Origin: Malacoraja senta
Taxonomy: Eukaryota
Direction: 5' to 3'
Assembly: GCA_038087875.1 (NCBI GenBank)
Contig: CM075988.1
Span: 23,996,001 to 24,060,000 of the forward strand
DNA length: 64,000 nt
Part shown: positions 1 through 29,424 of the stretch, in pieces
Layout of the letters: each line of letters opens with the position of its first letter
Position numbering within the stretch: position 1 is the stretch's first letter
Notes under the pieces: generated by a model
What the model saw: the letters and a program-made list of their open reading frames with translations, nothing else
Database searches by the model: none
Told to the model about the DNA's origin: nothing
Position numbers and translations under genes: made by a program

Positions 1-201
1 TTCTCTGCCACAGAAAGCAGTGGAAGCTAATTCATTGGATGTTTTCAAGAGAGAGTTAGATTTAGCTCTTGGGGCTGACGGAATCAAGGGATATGGAGAG
101 AAAGCTGGAACGGGGTACTAATTTGGATGATCAGCCATGATCATATTGAATGGCGGTGCTGGCTCGAAGGGCCTACTCCTGCACCTGTTTTCTATGTTTC
201 T
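1..201 (+). mobile_element. CR1/HER1-type LINE 3' end fragment
   Basis: Encodes ...SLPQKAVEA...FKRELD...GYGEKAG followed by the 3' UTR and (tctatgtt) tail shared with many copies in the window. Confidence 0.85.
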
Positions 202-7067: not shown

Positions 7068-7283
7068 TTACACATACTGTTCTTTAGGGTAGATGTAGGG
7101 TGCACGGGAGCCAGGCGTGGGGCCTCTGTGAGCGGCACCAGGGTGGCGGGGAGGGTCCGGGGCTCTATACGATAACTTATTATAAATAGGGTGGAGTTGC
7201 TCCAAGTAGTCGTCATGGTAACCGTGCCGGCTGCTCACGTATTCATCCTCAGCTGATAGTTCTTCGTAGCGATTCCCATTGTA
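7068..7283 (-). CDS. NECTIN1: Terminal cytoplasmic exon (phase 0): YNGNRYEELSAEDEYVSSRHGYHDDYLEQLHPIYNKLSYRAPDPPRHPGAAHRGPTPGSRAPYIYPKEQYV*
   Basis: Acceptor tgtctttacttccacag|. There are 71 open codons ending in EQYV*, matching the nectin E/A-x-Y-V afadin PDZ-binding consensus. Confidence 0.8.
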   Translation of the reverse strand, partial: YNGNRYEELSAEDEYVSSRHGYHDDYLEQLHPIYNKLSYRAPDPPRHPGAAHRGPTPGSRAPYIYPKEQYV

Positions 7284-7420: not shown

Positions 7421-9288
7421 AGGGGCTGTCCCACTTGGGCGACATAATTTAGGTTGCCCAAGTTTAGGCGGGTTTAGAAGAGTTTAGGAGAGTTTGAAAA
7501 AATGACATGTTGAAGACCAGCTTCGACTATGTAGAAGACCAGCTACAACTAACTTCAGGAAAATTGGACACTGAATAGTGGAGAGAGATGACGACCTCCC
7601 TTCGACTATGATGAAGACTGTCTACGACTACCTTCGACTACCCTCGATTACCTACGACTAACATTGGTACGACTACGACTTTGGAAAGTGGTGAAATCAT
7701 TGGACAAAGTCAGCATGGATTTATGAAAGGTAAATCATGTCTGACGAATCTTATAGAATTTTTCGAGGATGTAACTAGTAGAGTGGATAGGGGAGAACCA
7801 GTGGATGTGTTGTATCTGGACTTTCAGAAGGCTTTCGACAAGGTACTACATAAGAGATTAGTATGCAAACTTAAATCACACGGTATTGGGGGTTCAGTAT
7901 TGATGTGGATAGAGAACTGGCTGGCAAACAGGAAGCAAAGAGTAGGAGTAAACGGGTCCTTTTTACAATGGCAGGCAGTGACTAGTGGGGTACCGCAAGG
8001 CTCAGTGCTGGGACCCCAGCTATTTACAATTTATATTAATGATCTGGACGAGGGAATTGAAAGCAACATCTCCAAGTTTGCGGATGACACTAAGCTGGGG
8101 GGCAGTGTTAGCTGTGAGGAGGATGCTAGGAGACTGCAAGGTGACTTGGATAGGCTGGGTGAGTGGGCAAATGTTTGGCAGATGCAGTATAATGTGGATA
8201 AATGTGAGGTTATCCACTTTGGTGGCAAAAACGGGAAGGCAGACTATTATCTGAATGGTGGCCGATTAGGAAATGGGGAGATGCAGCGAGACCTGGGTGT
8301 CATGGTACACCAGTCATTGAAAGTAGGCATGCAGGTGCAGCAGGCAGTGAAGAAAGCGAATGGTATGTTGGCCTTCATAGCAAGAGGATTTGAGTATAGG
8401 AGCAGGGAGGTTCTACTGCAGTTGTACAGGGTCTTGGTGAGACCACACCTGGAGTATTGCGTACAGTTTTGGTCTCCAAATGTGAGGAAGGACATTATAG
8501 CCATAGAGGGAGTGCAGAGAAGGTTCACCAGACTGATTCCTGGGATGTCAGGACTTTCATATGAAGAAAGACTGGATAGACTTGGCTTATACTCGCTAGA
8601 ATTTAGGAGATTGAGAGGGGATCTTATAGAAACGTACAAAATTCTTATGGGGTTGGACAGGCTAGATGCAGGAAGATTGTTCCCGATGTTGGGGAAGTCC
8701 AGGACAAGGGGTCACAGCTTAAGGATAAGGGGGAAATCCTTTAAGACCGAGATGAGGAAAAACTTTTTCACACAGAGAGTGGTGAATCTCTGGAACTCTC
8801 TGCCACAGAGGGTAGTTGAGGCCAGTTCATTGGCTATATTTAAGAGGGAGTTAGATGTGGCCCTTGTGGCTAAAGGGATCAGGGGGTATGGAGAGAAGGC
8901 AGGTAGGTACGGGATACTGAGTTGGATGATCAGCCATGATCATATTGAATGGCGGTGCAGGCTCGAAGGGCCGAATGGCCTACTCCTGCACCTATTTTCT
9001 ATGTATCCATGTATCTATGTAACATGCCGACCCACTACGACTAAACCTACAAGTAAAAAAATATCGGTTTTTTTCCATGGCGACCTTTTTTTACTCGCGG
9101 GCATTTTTTAACAGATTGAAAAATACGCCGCGACCTAGCTGAGGCCTCGAGTACGCGGAGACCACTCTCGAGCATGAAGGAGAGTTACGAAGACCTCCTA
9201 CGACCTCGTGTCGACCGTGCTGCGAGTATGAGTCAGGGGCAAACTCGCCAGAACTCGCGGATTAGGTCGCCCATGTGGGACAGCCCCT
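7421..9288. mobile_element. Harbinger-like MITE subfamily C, split by a CR1 LINE insertion
   Basis: TIRs aggggctgtcccacttgggcgac / gtcgcccatgtgggacagcccct with flanks TAA / TTA. Internal tacgac-rich repeats continue on both sides of the LINE. Confidence 0.8.
7681..9020 (+). mobile_element. 5'-truncated CR1/HER1 LINE with an uninterrupted reverse-transcriptase domain
   Basis: ORF contains QHGFMKGKSCLTNL, YLDFQKAFDKV, GVPQGSVLGP, FADDTKL, RPHLEYCVQFWSP and NLWNSLP, then a 3' tail of tctatgt-like repeats. No endonuclease domain or ORF1 is present. Confidence 0.95.
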
Positions 9289-9412
9289 TTAATCTGGTTG
9301 GGGTCCAACCTCACAGGGTGACAGCTCTGCTCCACAGGAGAGGCTGATACCAACCCCGCTCACTATTCTGCCATGTGACCACTCGCTTGTGCTTGGCTGG
9401 GGCTGCACACAT

Positions 9413-11278
9413 GCACTCACACTCACTCGCTCTCACACTCACTCGCTCTCACACTCACTCCCTGTCACTCATTCACTCACTCACTCACTCACTCACTCAC
9501 TCTCACTCTCTGTCACACACTCACTCACTCTCTCACACTCACTCACTCTCACACTCACTCTCACACACTCACTCACACTCACTCACTCACACTCACTCTC
9601 ACTCTCTGTCACACACTCTCTCACACTCACCCACTCACTCTCTCACACTCACTCACTCACACTCACTCACTCTCACACTCACTCTCTCACACTCACTCTG
9701 TCACACACTCACTCACACTCACTCACTCACTCACTCACTCTCACACTCACTCACTCACTCACACTCACTCACTCACTCTCACACTCACTCACTCACTCTC
9801 ACACTCACTCACTCTCACACTCACTCACACTCACTCACTCACTCACACTCACTCACTCACTCACTCACTCACTCACTCTCACACTCACTCACTCTCACAC
9901 TCACTCACACTCACTCACTCACTCTCACACTCACTCACTCTCACACTCACTCACACTCACTCACTCACTCACACTCACTCACTCTCACACTCACTCACTC
10001 TCACACTCACTCACACTCACTCACTCTCACACTCACTCACTCACTCACACTCACTCACTCTCACACTCACACACTCACTCACTCACTCACTCACACTCAC
10101 TCACACACTCACTCACTCTCACACACTCTCACACTCACTCACTCTCACACTCACTCACACTCACTCACACTCACTCACTCACTCTCACACTCACTCACTC
10201 TCACACTCACTCACACTCACTCACTCTCACACTCACACACTCACACACTCACTCACTCTCACACTCACTCACACTCACTCACTCTCACACTCACACACTC
10301 ACTCTCACACTCACTCTCACACTCACTCACTCACTCACTCACTCACTCACTCACACTCACTCACTCTCACACTCACTCACTCTCACACTCACTCACTCAC
10401 TCACTCACTCACTCACACTCACTCACACACTCACTCACTCTCACACTCACTCACTCACTCACTCACTCATTCTCACACTCACTCACTCTCACACTCACTC
10501 ACTCACTCTCACACTCACTCACTCACTCACTCTCACACTCACTCACTCTCACACTCACTCACTCACTCACTCTCACACTCACTCACTCACTCACTCTCAC
10601 ACTCACTCACTCTCACACTCACTCACTCTCACACTCACTCACTCACACTCACTCACTCACACTCACTCACTCACTCACACACTCACTCACTCACTCACTC
10701 ACTCTCACACTCACTCACTCACTCTCACACTCACTCACTCACTCTCACACTCACTCACTCACTCACACTCACTCACTCACTCACACACTCACTCACTCAC
10801 TCTCACACTCACTCACTCACTCTCACACTCACTCACTCACACTCACTCACTCACTCACACACTCACTCACTCACTCTCACACTCACTCACTCACTCTCAC
10901 ACTCACTCACTCTCACACTCACTCACACTCACTCACTCTCACACTCACTCTCTCACACCCACTCTCACACTCACTCACTCACACTCACTCACTCACTCTC
11001 ACACTCACTCACTCACACTCACTCACTCTCACACTCACTCACTCTCACACTCACTCACTCACACTCACTCATGCACACTCTCACACTCACTCACACTCAC
11101 TCACTCTCACTCTGTCACTCTCACTCACTCACTCTCTCACTCATTCATGCATGCACGCACGCACACCACCCCCACACACACTCACTCACACTCTACTCAC
11201 TCTCCCACACACTCTCACACACTCACACACTCACACACACTCTACTCACTCTCCCACACACTCTCACACACTCACACA
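9413..11278. repeat. About 1.9-kb complex (CACT)/(CA)/(CT) simple-repeat array
   Basis: Read directly. It explains the spurious 739-aa and 631-aa His/Ser/Leu/Thr ORFs. Confidence 0.97.
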
Positions 11279-11699
11279 TTGTAAGAGCCGTATATTTGCT
11301 CACTCACCAGTGAATGCAACCAGGGAGATGGTTTGCAGAGTAAATGTTCAGTTCTTCATTGCTAAATGCACAGACAGATTTGCTTGGATGGTGACACAGG
11401 TGAACATTTGGGGCGGGCTGCGTTTTGCCAGCGAGCTGCTGTACATTGGGATTCCGTTGAATAACAACTCACCAGGGACTCCCCAGCCTCACCTTGCCCT
11501 CGCTCTCTCACACCCTCTGGCTCTAATCCTTTCTGTGTCTCCGCCACAATTTCTGGCCCCTGTGTATCTAGAGTTGGTCTCACTCCTCAGCTAGATGCCA
11601 AGCTCCCAGGCTCTGGAATCTCCTCTCTAAAGCTCTTCACCTCCCTCTCCCCCTTCAAAATCACCCTTAACATCTACCTGTTTGATCACTCCCACGTCC

Positions 11700-18645: not shown

Positions 18646-19319
18646 CTGGACTCGTCCTAACCTACCCTTAAAGGTTGCTCAAGGTGGAGTATAAAGAGTC
18701 CACATCCATTTTAGTGCACGAAATCTACCAATAGGCAGTGGACTAAATCACGCTGAATGAGAACAAGAAACCTCGAGGGCAAATGTCCTTTGGGGAATAA
18801 AGGTCACCTTTGCCTCTGTATGAATAAATCCAGCCGGGCCTTGCTGAGAATGCAATGATATTTCAAAATAGATCAAAATAAATCTTATCTTTCTCTGCTG
18901 TGACTCATCTCCGTGATTTGGACTCGAGGCTAGTCAACTAGGTATATGGATTGTTGGGCAATTTGGCAGCAGACAATTTGAAGATGTCATTGATTCACTT
19001 TGCAGTAAGCCATGCACAATGCAGCTTGGTTGGATCAGCAACAATGGAGAACGTTGAACATTCATTACCGACAGACACACAGACACAGAATCAACGGATG
19101 CATAAAGGGTGTGAATTATCAATTATTGGAACTGCTTTGTCTGATAAAATGGGAACATGCGCTACAAAGTCAGTTAGTGACGGAGCCATTCCACTGATGT
19201 GCGTTGCATGCATATTACATCAGTGATCATCAGATTACGTAGAGGAACGACGGAGGTGGGGGGGGGGGGGGTGGGGGGTGCAGAAGTGTACCTGGAGGTC
19301 AAAGGTCTGAGGGAAAGGC

Positions 19320-19478
19320 CTAGAGAGGCATGCTTAAACGTAAGTTAGGCTGGATAGTTGCGTACTCGACCAGGTCTCCTCCAGCGTGAATGGAGGTCCG
19401 AGGACTGGGATGTGAGGAGGCCAGAGCAGTGGTGTCGAGCTCGGCATATTGGATGTCATAGTCCTTGGCACCAGGAGG
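19320..19478 (-). CDS. NECTIN1: Alternative terminal cytoplasmic exon (phase 0): PPGAKDYDIQYAELDTTALASSHPSPRTSIHAGGDLVEYATIQPNLRLSMPL*, with two ITIM-like motifs
   Basis: Acceptor gccactctctag| at 19479-19480 follows a very long pyrimidine tract. There are 52 open codons to TAG, with IQYAEL and VEYATI motifs. Same strand as, and downstream of, the TM exon. Not in the supplied ORF track. Confidence 0.75.
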   Translation of the reverse strand, partial: PPGAKDYDIQYAELDTTALASSHPSPRTSIHAGGDLVEYATIQPNLRLSMPL

Positions 19479-19494
19479 CTAGAGAGTGGCGGGG

Positions 19495-19653
19495 GATGGG
19501 GAGAGAACGGGAGGGAGAGGGAGAGAGACAGAGGAGAGGGAGATAGAGAGGGAGATAGATAGTAGATAGATAGATAGAGGGAGAGAGAGGGAGAGGGAGA
19601 GAGGGAGAAGAGAGAGAGAGAGGGAGAGGGGAGGAGAGGGAGGAGAGAGAGGC

Positions 19654-19712
<59 letters not shown>

Positions 19713-19713
19713 T

Positions 19714-19746
<33 letters not shown>

Positions 19747-19762
19747 GGGAGAGGGAGAAATG

Positions 19763-19794
<32 letters not shown>

Positions 19795-19818
19795 GAGAGA
19801 GAGAGGGGGGGAGAGAGA

Positions 19819-19862
<44 letters not shown>

Positions 19863-19950
19863 GAGGGGGGAGAGAGAGAGGGAGAGAGAGTGAGAGGAGG
19901 GAACGAGAGAGAGAGAGAGTCAAGGCAAGAAACACGAGGAGGGAGGAGAC
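19495..19950. repeat. GA-rich purine tract (CT-rich on the gene strand)
   Basis: Read directly. It abuts the acceptor of the ITIM exon. Confidence 0.95.
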
Positions 19951-20510
19951 AGTAATAGAGAAAAAATATTAAAGAATAGAATTGATGCAGAATTTTTAAA
20001 AAGATTTCTGAAACAGTAAACTAATTAAATTACTACAACCAGAACTGGCAGAAGATAAGGTAAACAATATCCTCAGCTGAGAGTCACTGTCTCTGTAAAA
20101 CCCGTAAGATGATGACATTTATTGGTGACCATTTGGAAATGGGAAAGGACATCTGCAGCCGTTGCTGCTCAGCCCATCCTACACATGGACCAACCGCACC
20201 ATGCTTCGGTGCATCAAGCCCGCGGGGCCGACCCAATCTGGACTTTGAATAATGGCAGCAATAATGTGGCGGTACAAAACAAATTTCACTGCGCAGTTGT
20301 GTACGTGACAAAAACAATGCACTGCTGAACTGCTGAACTATTGAAAAACGCTTGGTTGTAATTCTTGTTATGGAAAGAAAATACTTAACCTGGTGAACTT
20401 CTCAACTTCAGATTATTCTGAGAACCTCTGCAAATAAAGATAGGCACTCGTAGAATAGTGGCCACACAGAACGTTCCCACGGGCGGCAGACAAATAAAGG
20501 ACTACATTAT

Positions 20511-23992: not shown

Positions 23993-24192
23993 NNNNNNNN
24001 NNNNNNNNNNNNNNNNNNNNNNNNNNNNNNNNNNNNNNNNNNNNNNNNNNNNNNNNNNNNNNNNNNNNNNNNNNNNNNNNNNNNNNNNNNNNNNNNNNNN
24101 NNNNNNNNNNNNNNNNNNNNNNNNNNNNNNNNNNNNNNNNNNNNNNNNNNNNNNNNNNNNNNNNNNNNNNNNNNNNNNNNNNNNNNNNNNNN
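23993..24192. other. Assembly gap (200 N)
   Basis: Run of N. Confidence 1.
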
Positions 24193-28343: not shown

Positions 28344-28597
28344 TCACATGCCTCAGGTCCGGAAACCAACACTCCTGCAACATCCTCAGTCTCCCACTTT
28401 AAACAAGGGTCTCGATCCGAGACGTCGCCTATCCGTGTTCTCCTGAGATGCTGCCCGGCCAACTGGGCTACTCCAGCACTTGTGTCCTCCGTGATTCGGT
28501 AGCTTGTGTCAGGCTGGAGTAACTCAGCAGGTCAGGCAGCATCTCTGGAGAAAAAAGGATGGGTGATATGTCGGGTCGGGATCCTTCTTCAGACTAA

Positions 28598-29061
28598 AGG
28601 GCCTGTCCCACGGGCATGCGACTCCATGCGGCAAGCGCGACCTAACCGCAATCGGGGGCCGCGCGGAGGTCGTGTGATCCCCGTACAGGGCCGGTCCCAC
28701 CAGCATGCGGCTGCATGCGGCAAGCGCTACCAAATCGGAAGCGGGGGCCGCGCGGAGGTCGAGTGCCGTCAAGACGTTGCGTACGGCGACGAGGCGGTGC
28801 GCACGGCCTCGATGGGGCTACGTCCGGCGGCAAGGCGGTGCGCATGGCCTCGATGTGGCTGCGGGCCGGCAGGCCGTTGCCGCAGGGAATTTTTGAACGG
28901 TGTCAGTTTTTCGGAGCCAGGCGCGATGTCGGGACCAGCTCCGCACAACTCCATGCGGCTCCCGCGATCGAAGTGGGACCGGCCCCGCGACCTCCGCGCG
29001 GCCCCCGCTTGGGGTTAGGTGTGCTTGCCGCATGGAGTCGCATGCCCGTGGGACAGGCCCT
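28598..29061. mobile_element. GC-rich Harbinger-like MITE subfamily D with long TIRs
   Basis: agggcctgtcccacgggcatgcgactccatgcggcaagc / gcttgccgcatggagtcgcatgcccgtgggacaggccct, flanks TAA / TTA. Confidence 0.85.
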
Positions 29062-29276
29062 TTAGTACTCAGCTGTATTTGGCCAGTTCTTGGTCGATGC
29101 TGAGTCAATAGTCGACGTGAAGTTTAGTTAATACTCTGCATGCAGTCACGAAAACAGCTTCTCACTGTACACAATAAACGGAACTGAACAACACTGTACA
29201 GTGTGTGGTTAGTACTTGGTCAGACGATGGTGGGCTCTGGTCGAGTGCTCTTGACCGCTGCCCAGCCAGTACTCAC

Positions 29277-29424
29277 AGGTCATTGTCCGTGTCCGCCCGA
29301 TTCTTCTGCTGGCGCCGGTAGATGAAGAAAATGGTCACTATGGCGCTGATGATGATCACTGCGGCAATAATTCCACCCAGAATTCCTATCACACTTCCAG
29401 GGGCTCCCCGGGGCAGTGGCTTAT
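29277..29424 (-). CDS. NECTIN1: Nectin-1 beta-type transmembrane exon (148 nt, phase 1 to phase 2): (D)KPLPRGAPGSVIGILGGIIAAVIIISAIVTIFFIYRRQQKNRADTDND(L)
   Basis: Minus strand has acceptor tttgctttctttttgcag| and donor |gtgagt. The frame is open, with a ~24-aa hydrophobic helix followed by basic stop-transfer residues. It resembles human nectin-1beta KPRPQ...TVFFLYNRQQKSPPETD (from memory). The phase-1 start is as expected after an Ig-domain exon. Confidence 0.88.

Follow-up and report, generated by a model that had tools for sequence, protein, structure and literature searches.

The question raised by this locus is whether a single skate gene can, by including or skipping one small exon, exchange a PDZ-type cytoplasmic tail for a tail carrying two ITIM-like tyrosine motifs. 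The DNA analyzed, here referred to as the window, is a stretch of 64,000 nucleotides from Malacoraja senta. Judged by protein comparisons, the gene on its minus strand is a skate-like NECTIN1, of which the window holds the 3' part. The preliminary description had named the gene a nectin, and this assignment holds: the TM exon and the tail match named nectin-1 proteins (the TM exon, 29424-29277, being 100% and exon E, 7283-7071, 93% identical to Amblyraja nectin-1), and an Ig V exon lies on the same strand, ~118 kb upstream of the TM exon. The main elements of the locus are the following.

29277..29424, minus strand: TM exon, beta-type, phase 1 in and phase 2 out, 94-100% identical to shark/ray nectin-1b proteins
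23993..24192, no strand: assembly gap, possible home of tail exons B (IDLPP..DDIQ) and C (VVHLD..YYD..SEKS)
19479..19960, minus strand: CT-rich polypyrimidine tract and TAG acceptor of exon D, with the junction used in the X18 and X19 contigs
19292..19478, minus strand: exon D, a cassette of 187 nt seen in run contigs, with 47 codons, a stop and 43 nt, and the donor CAG/GTACAC; same length in teleost locus L016
7071..7283, minus strand: exon E, encoding the EQYV (PDZ-type) tail if exon D is skipped, serving as 3' UTR if full exon D is included, and read in the frame TMGIATKNYQLRMNT* after the internal donor of exon D

The Ig2 and Ig3 exons, present in the proteins of relatives, were not found in the 154 kb examined, a region with three gaps, and a search of the window's assembly for tail exons B and C gave no match (best E 0.24). 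These two tail exons, both of which are spliced into exon D, may sit in the gap at 23993..24192. An alpha-type EWYV tail had no match in the same gapped 154 kb and occurs in 0 of the 74 shark/ray models listed; with the reservation that the assembly is gapped, nectin-1 may ancestrally have had the multi-exon tail. A tRNA scan yielded no tRNA, a PDB sequence search no match, and the ESM Atlas no usable match. The sole candidate for a second copy of exon D in the assembly (1.94-Gb genome) was exon D itself.

Exon D was described beforehand as a phase-0 minus-strand exon that starts at 19478 and encodes IQYAEL and VEYATI with their tyrosines 28 residues apart, and the sequence agrees with this description in full. 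It agrees less well with the proposed end at 19320, because coding ends at 19335. The parts of the exon are as follows.

19437..19454, minus strand: motif 1, IQYAEL(DT), fitting the ITIM consensus
19353..19370, minus strand: motif 2, VEYATI(Q), fitting the vertebrate PD-1 second-motif consensus (T/V)EYATI
19364..19365, minus strand: internal donor GT within the Glu-Tyr codons of motif 2, used in database models P0017, P0022, P0063, P0076, P0084, P0091 and others
19335..19337, minus strand: true stop codon, TAA in 7/7 runs and TTA in the assembly
19292..19334, minus strand: post-stop exonic segment of 43 nt, 36/44 aligned columns identical to teleost, a score reached by 0/2000 shuffles

All seven runs (X1, X17-X22) differ from the assembly at 19336, giving a TAA stop at 19337-19335 directly after QPNLR, and QPNLR is also the end of all 22 two-tyrosine shark/ray models listed. 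Run X1, which may be the assembly's own source, is otherwise identical to the assembly over exon D. Because all seven runs, X1 included, differ there, base 19336 of the window is likely an assembly error or a private allele. Nearby, at window 19026-19140, X1 and the assembly differ by 4 single-base indels in 275 bases, which hints at assembly base errors or at a different individual. Read-through of the stop, which would add SMPL, was considered and rejected: the second stop is not kept in sharks, with position 19322 differing in X19, X21 and X22.

Both motifs fit the ITIM consensus (S/I/V/L)xYxx(I/V/L) and, in spliced models, lie downstream of the TM exon and thus in the cytoplasmic tail. Motif 2 departs from the strict ITSM, TxYxx(V/I), having V at pY-2 in 70/70 peptides. 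The reading frame is clear. Variable coding sites among the runs fall on third positions in 18 of 19 cases (binomial P 3e-8 against one third) and coding changes in the motif frame are silent in 20 of 21, although the compared runs are related and the changes are not independent events. Exon D is coding and under purifying selection. The +1 frame is also open in the teleost and, base 19336 aside, in the window; dual coding by this frame is unsupported, as variation falls on third positions of the motif frame and the +1 frame is used by none of the tails in the proteins compared. In two protein models, P0031 and P0045, Gln stands where teleost exon D has a TAG stop and the frame runs on, likely owing to a wrong genetic code.

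The exon is not a peculiarity of skates. A search with the exon D peptide gave 22 protein matches from sharks to birds, and a further search gave 32 representatives. Of these, 29 are true relatives, frog and tree shrew among them, and P0028, P0032 and P0053 were dropped as unrelated repeat proteins. With the tree-shrew tail as query, 46 of 48 matches had both motifs (rat, horse, beaver, guinea pig, capuchin, snakes and many teleosts) and 2 of 48 lacked exon D. Models from hamster, deer mouse, grass rat and sloth also contain it. Two-motif orthologues are thus found in teleosts, amphibians, lizards, birds, rat, horse, sloth and capuchin. The preliminary description had looked to non-mammalian loci for conservation of both tyrosine motifs. 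The conservation is there, across jawed vertebrates and, among the runs compared, with all coding differences but one of 21 being silent, and it is not limited to non-mammals, given rat, horse and capuchin. Exon D dates to the jawed-vertebrate ancestor.

Conservation of the encoded peptide is highest next to the tyrosines. In 70 distinct peptides, pY-2 of motif 1 is I or V in all 70, and V, E and Q occupy positions -2, -1 and +4 of motif 2 in all 70, these being positions outside the search pattern, whereas mid-linker positions are conserved at 33-66%. The core motif letters are partly fixed by the search pattern, and because the motifs themselves served as the query for collecting the set, it may lack degenerate copies. 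Moreover, the Glu-Tyr codons of motif 2 also contain a splice donor, so that part of their conservation is explained by splicing. The spacing of the two tyrosines is 25-28 in 103/103 two-motif proteins, from skate to capuchin.

The preliminary description called the tail hidden and left undecided whether the isoform was annotated; RefSeq already predicts it (for example XP_055516547.1, XP_017450937.1). Among the RefSeq predicted nectin-1 "isoform X" proteins are examples of each tail, with two tyrosines, one tyrosine or EQYV, under names that make no mention of a motif. An unrelated annotation error was seen in P0019, a Komodo dragon nectin-1 tail named 4-hydroxy-3-methylbut-2-en-1-yl diphosphate synthase in NCBI.

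How, then, is exon D joined to the rest of the gene? Exons D and E had been proposed to be interchangeable last exons. Exon E (acceptor 7283) is indeed also in phase 0 and lies 12.2 kb downstream of exon D, and the 19478 acceptor is used in the X18 and X19 contigs, which derive from related sharks/skates and from runs only guessed to be RNA; among runs on record as RNA, none contains the window's own sequence. In the X19 contig, the end of exon C (ESSPYSEKS, by hand translation) is joined to exon D. In the X18 contig, the end of exon B (MKTHLTPDDIQ) is followed by exon D and then by exon E: the contig passes the stop and follows the window as far as 19292, after which its next 29 letters match the start of exon E at 28/29, the letters of the D-to-E junction being known from this one run only. 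X17 and X19 contigs likewise diverge from the window at 19292 and have further letters beyond; X17 and X18 are from one study. X20, X21, X22 and one X19 contig extend past 19292 into the intron, and these may be DNA, pre-mRNA or occasional terminal use of exon D. A poly(A) site had been expected behind exon D, but neither AATAAA nor ATTAAA occurs within 2.4 kb after the stop. Exon D is a cassette with an internal stop and not a simple last exon. What stands of the earlier proposal is that the tails exclude each other in the protein, motif and EQYV occurring together in 0 of the 74 shark/ray models listed; what does not stand is the terminal position, as exon D splices on to exon E at 19292 in X18.

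The same architecture is present in L016, a teleost locus by its peptide and the single outside genomic locus obtained (1/134 pattern matches confirmed). Its exon D has the same 187 nt, the donor is kept, and the same 43 nt separate stop and donor. Identity between skate and L016 is 36/44 in post-stop columns, 102/144 in coding columns and 22/47 in the intron beyond. That the conserved 43 nt are a splicing element is a guess. Within the segment (window 19292-19334, minus strand; L016 1488-1530), a YAG/GCC is kept 28 nt ahead of the donor. It may act in regulation or as the acceptor of a micro-exon; none of the models splices there. A stop less than 50-55 nt from the last junction escapes nonsense-mediated decay (NMD), as stated in the consulted part of PMC12668785. 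Because the stop of exon D lies only 43 nt before the junction, the D-E mRNA likely escapes NMD and makes the two-tyrosine protein, exon E being assumed to be last. On the same assumption we discarded the idea of an NMD-inducing poison exon, for which the stop would have to lie >50-55 nt upstream of the last junction; in skate and in teleost the distance is 43 nt. The D-E intron also contains, at window 9293-11594, ~2.3 kb of short tandem repeat with Thr-His-Ser-Leu open frames.

Splicing generates a third state. With use of the internal donor (GA/GT), the second tyrosine is lost and exon E is read in a different frame, as seen in database models from sharks, rays, reedfish, teleosts, lizards and crows; neither a read in the runs examined nor a skate model contained this short D-E junction. 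The 74 shark/ray models listed comprise 27 with EQYV, 22 with two tyrosines, 8 with one tyrosine and 17 with other short forms. Thus, there are three tails in the models: PDZ-type (D skipped), one tyrosine (short D) and two tyrosines (full D). The second frame of exon E (window 7235-7282, minus strand) overlaps the EQYV frame, and its Tyr and short length are kept from sharks to birds. The C-terminus EQYV itself has the form of the afadin-binding pattern E/A-X-Y-V. In the part of PMC2185068 available, tails proven for the afadin PDZ domain have W, V or M at X, neurexin-2alpha, ending in EYYV, did not bind, and Takahashi 1999 suggests that a hydrophobic residue may be needed at X. Afadin binding by EQYV fits the pattern, but X is Q here, and the interaction is putative. 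Teleost nectin-1b exon E ends in EQSV and not EQYV (P0242, P0245, P0252, P0256), so that its PDZ partner may differ.

Based on the motifs and their spacing, we suggest a model in which the ancient exon D swaps the EQYV tail for a two-tyrosine tail that is predicted to dock the tandem SH2 domains of SHP-2/SHP-1 in a PD-1-like manner, and we regard this model as probable. In this model, clustering of the ectodomain would lead a Src-family kinase to phosphorylate both tyrosines, VEpYATI would engage the C-SH2 domain and IQpYAEL the N-SH2 domain, and the phosphatase would be opened at the cell contact. Skipping of exon D would leave the PDZ-type tail, short exon D one tyrosine and full exon D two. 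According to the sections of PMC12151841 consulted, the second motif supplies most of the SHP-2 affinity in PD-1; use of the internal donor would thus cost the tail its stronger site and leave the one-tyrosine form as a weak state.

The preliminary description had considered the motifs suited to SHP-1/SHP-2 docking, and the fit of both to the ITIM consensus together with a spacing compatible with tandem SH2 domains favors this. Compared with its examples, PECAM1, PZR and Siglecs, the ITIM/ITSM consensus of PD-1 is the better match to the pair. The vertebrate PD-1 consensus is given as (I/V)(D/E)Y(A/G)(E/V)L(D/E)F and (T/V)EYATIx(F/Y); at +3, N-SH2 prefers L and C-SH2 prefers I, C-SH2 prefers A at +1, A at +1 of the ITIM favors SHP-1, and an aromatic residue at pY+5, conserved in PD-1, aids SHP-2 binding (all from the same portion of PMC12151841). 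Exon D follows the +1 and +3 preferences, with L at +3 of motif 1 and I at +3 of motif 2; the aromatic pY+5 is absent from both motifs. Its spacing falls between those of PD-1 (Y223/Y248, 25) and GAB1 (Y627/Y659), the latter being described as a proven bivalent SHP-2 ligand in the accessible text of PMC12132298.

The likeness to PD-1 (PDCD1) thus extends to both motifs, IQYAELD and VEYATI, to the order of an ITIM followed by an ITSM-like motif and to the spacing; moreover, the PD-1 of primitive vertebrates is described as also having no ITSM T at pY-2 (PMC12151841, in part). By contrast, nectin-1 is a three-Ig adhesion molecule and not a CD28-family receptor, exon D has no pY+5 aromatic and has Q/H/Y at pY-1 of motif 1, and its tail is optional by splicing. 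Convergence on SHP-2 preferences is the simpler reading of the likeness. In its use of splicing, the system resembles CEACAM1-L/S, an Ig adhesion molecule with an ITIM/ITSM tail switched by a small cassette exon, on whose long form SHP-1 and SHP-2 act; according to PMC11646291, the 53-nt exon of CEACAM1 sets the frame and the short form is without the motifs. In nectin-1, by contrast, the cassette itself encodes both motifs and the stop, skipping yields a PDZ-type tail, and the internal donor yields a one-tyrosine state. The third relative is PVR/CD155, in which, as far as PMC7037299 was available, an ITIM is present in one splice form only (alpha versus delta), is phosphorylated by c-Src and recruits SHP-2. 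PVR has no PDZ motif. Exon D encodes two motifs, and its origin goes back to the ancestor of jawed vertebrates. Because recruitment of SHP-2 to the PVR ITIM leads to FAK dephosphorylation and higher motility (PMC7037299, same part), an inhibitory outcome should not be assumed for nectin-1; the outcome may be inhibitory or pro-migratory.

Other readings of the same motifs have to be weighed. YxxPhi is the sorting consensus of clathrin adaptors. Both YAEL and YATI fit it, and the PVR alpha tail binds the mu1B adaptor subunit besides carrying an ITIM; exon D could thus present sorting signals for AP-1/AP-2 that change the location of nectin-1 and not its signalling. We consider this unlikely as the whole explanation, as sorting alone leaves unexplained the fixed I/V at pY-2, the 25-28 spacing and the L/I split at +3 that mirrors N-SH2/C-SH2, but a sorting role could act alongside SHP docking. 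Recruitment by the phosphotyrosines of other SH2 proteins (Csk, SHIP, SOCS, SAP-type adaptors) in place of SHP-1/SHP-2 would be in line with the missing pY+5 aromatics of PD-1, with the recruitment of SHIP-1 by ITIM-bearing TIGIT and with the similar spacing that all tandem-SH2 families have in common. Against it, the -2, +1 and +3 residues of both motifs lie within the published SHP-2 selection consensus, and we judge it quite unlikely.

The remaining two readings deny the peptide a function. If exon D served chiefly as a regulatory stop exon, to eliminate the PDZ tail or adjust the mRNA level, its own stop would be accounted for, as would the greater likeness of skate and teleost in the post-stop segment (36/44) than in the coding part (102/144), which points to an RNA-level element. 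An incidental peptide is, however, hard to square with 20/21 silent coding differences, with motifs that persist in mammals while the linker diverges and with a stop within the NMD-escape zone, making this reading very improbable. Chance occurrence of the motif pair in intronic DNA deserves mention, given that single ITIM-consensus matches are common in the window (25-33 per frame) and that a six-frame scan found 3 pairs 15-40 aa apart in one open frame, the exon D pair among them. It is refuted by the splicing seen in contigs, by purifying selection and by the occurrence of orthologues throughout jawed vertebrates, and its probability is negligible. SHP-2/SHP-1 docking by exon D is the reading that we retain as probable.

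The primate data bear on the human gene. Human isoform 2 (NP_976030.1), which we take to be nectin-1 beta/HIgR, has the same TM exon and exons B and C, and its sequence stays parallel to the D forms of capuchin, horse and rat until exon C ends. After exon C it ends with VRTTEPRGECP, which contains neither motif. Rat, mouse, donkey and lemur models have the same departure point, always with Val (GT codon) first. Because this shared departure point always begins with Val, the VRTTEPRGECP tail is likely a read-through of the exon C donor, which would place it one exon short of D. The matches listed, which cover about 15 of the 60 members of the cluster holding human isoform 2, include no exon D model from human, apes or Old World monkeys, and exon D occurs in 0/8 lemur models and 0/1 mouse model seen.

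In open-access literature, we found no title or abstract start describing a two-tyrosine tail of nectin-1, and the tail peptides YAELDT, VEYATI and EYATIQP are absent from the open-access main texts searched. Exon D is a real, old and overlooked exon with a probable signalling role, predicted in RefSeq, on which no paper was found. In the consulted part of PMC7286890, PVR is regarded as having branched from nectin-2 in placental mammals and is named as the only nectin with an ITIM, in a survey that took the longest isoform per gene. A two-motif nectin-1 tail from skates to primates would overturn this view of a PVR-only, recent mammalian ITIM. It would also link a protein much studied for adhesion and virus entry directly to SHP-2/SHP-1, would explain the orphan tail of human isoform 2 and may mark a difference between rodents and humans.

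We tentatively raise a wider possibility, about which we are more doubtful than confident: that the ancestral nectin-1 was both an adhesion molecule and a PD-1-like SHP-2 receptor, with a three-position splice dial since the jawed-vertebrate ancestor, and that human nectin-1beta is its stump. If true, the dial would set a nectin-1 contact to afadin anchoring, to weak phosphatase recruitment (one tyrosine) or to full activation (two). The signalling form would still be made by rodents, horses and New World monkeys, and human beta would be what was left after loss or silencing of the exon. As a result, nectin partners, CD96 or herpesvirus gD binding to nectin-1 would signal differently in model animals and in people.

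Two further features of the window lie in its introns. At 28597-29064, just downstream of the TM exon, there is a GC-rich, MITE-like element with long terminal inverted repeats. On the plus strand, 7615-9111 holds a reverse-transcriptase-like frame of 498 aa from a LINE-type repeat, which we take to be CR1/L2, and LINE-type fragments are present throughout the introns.
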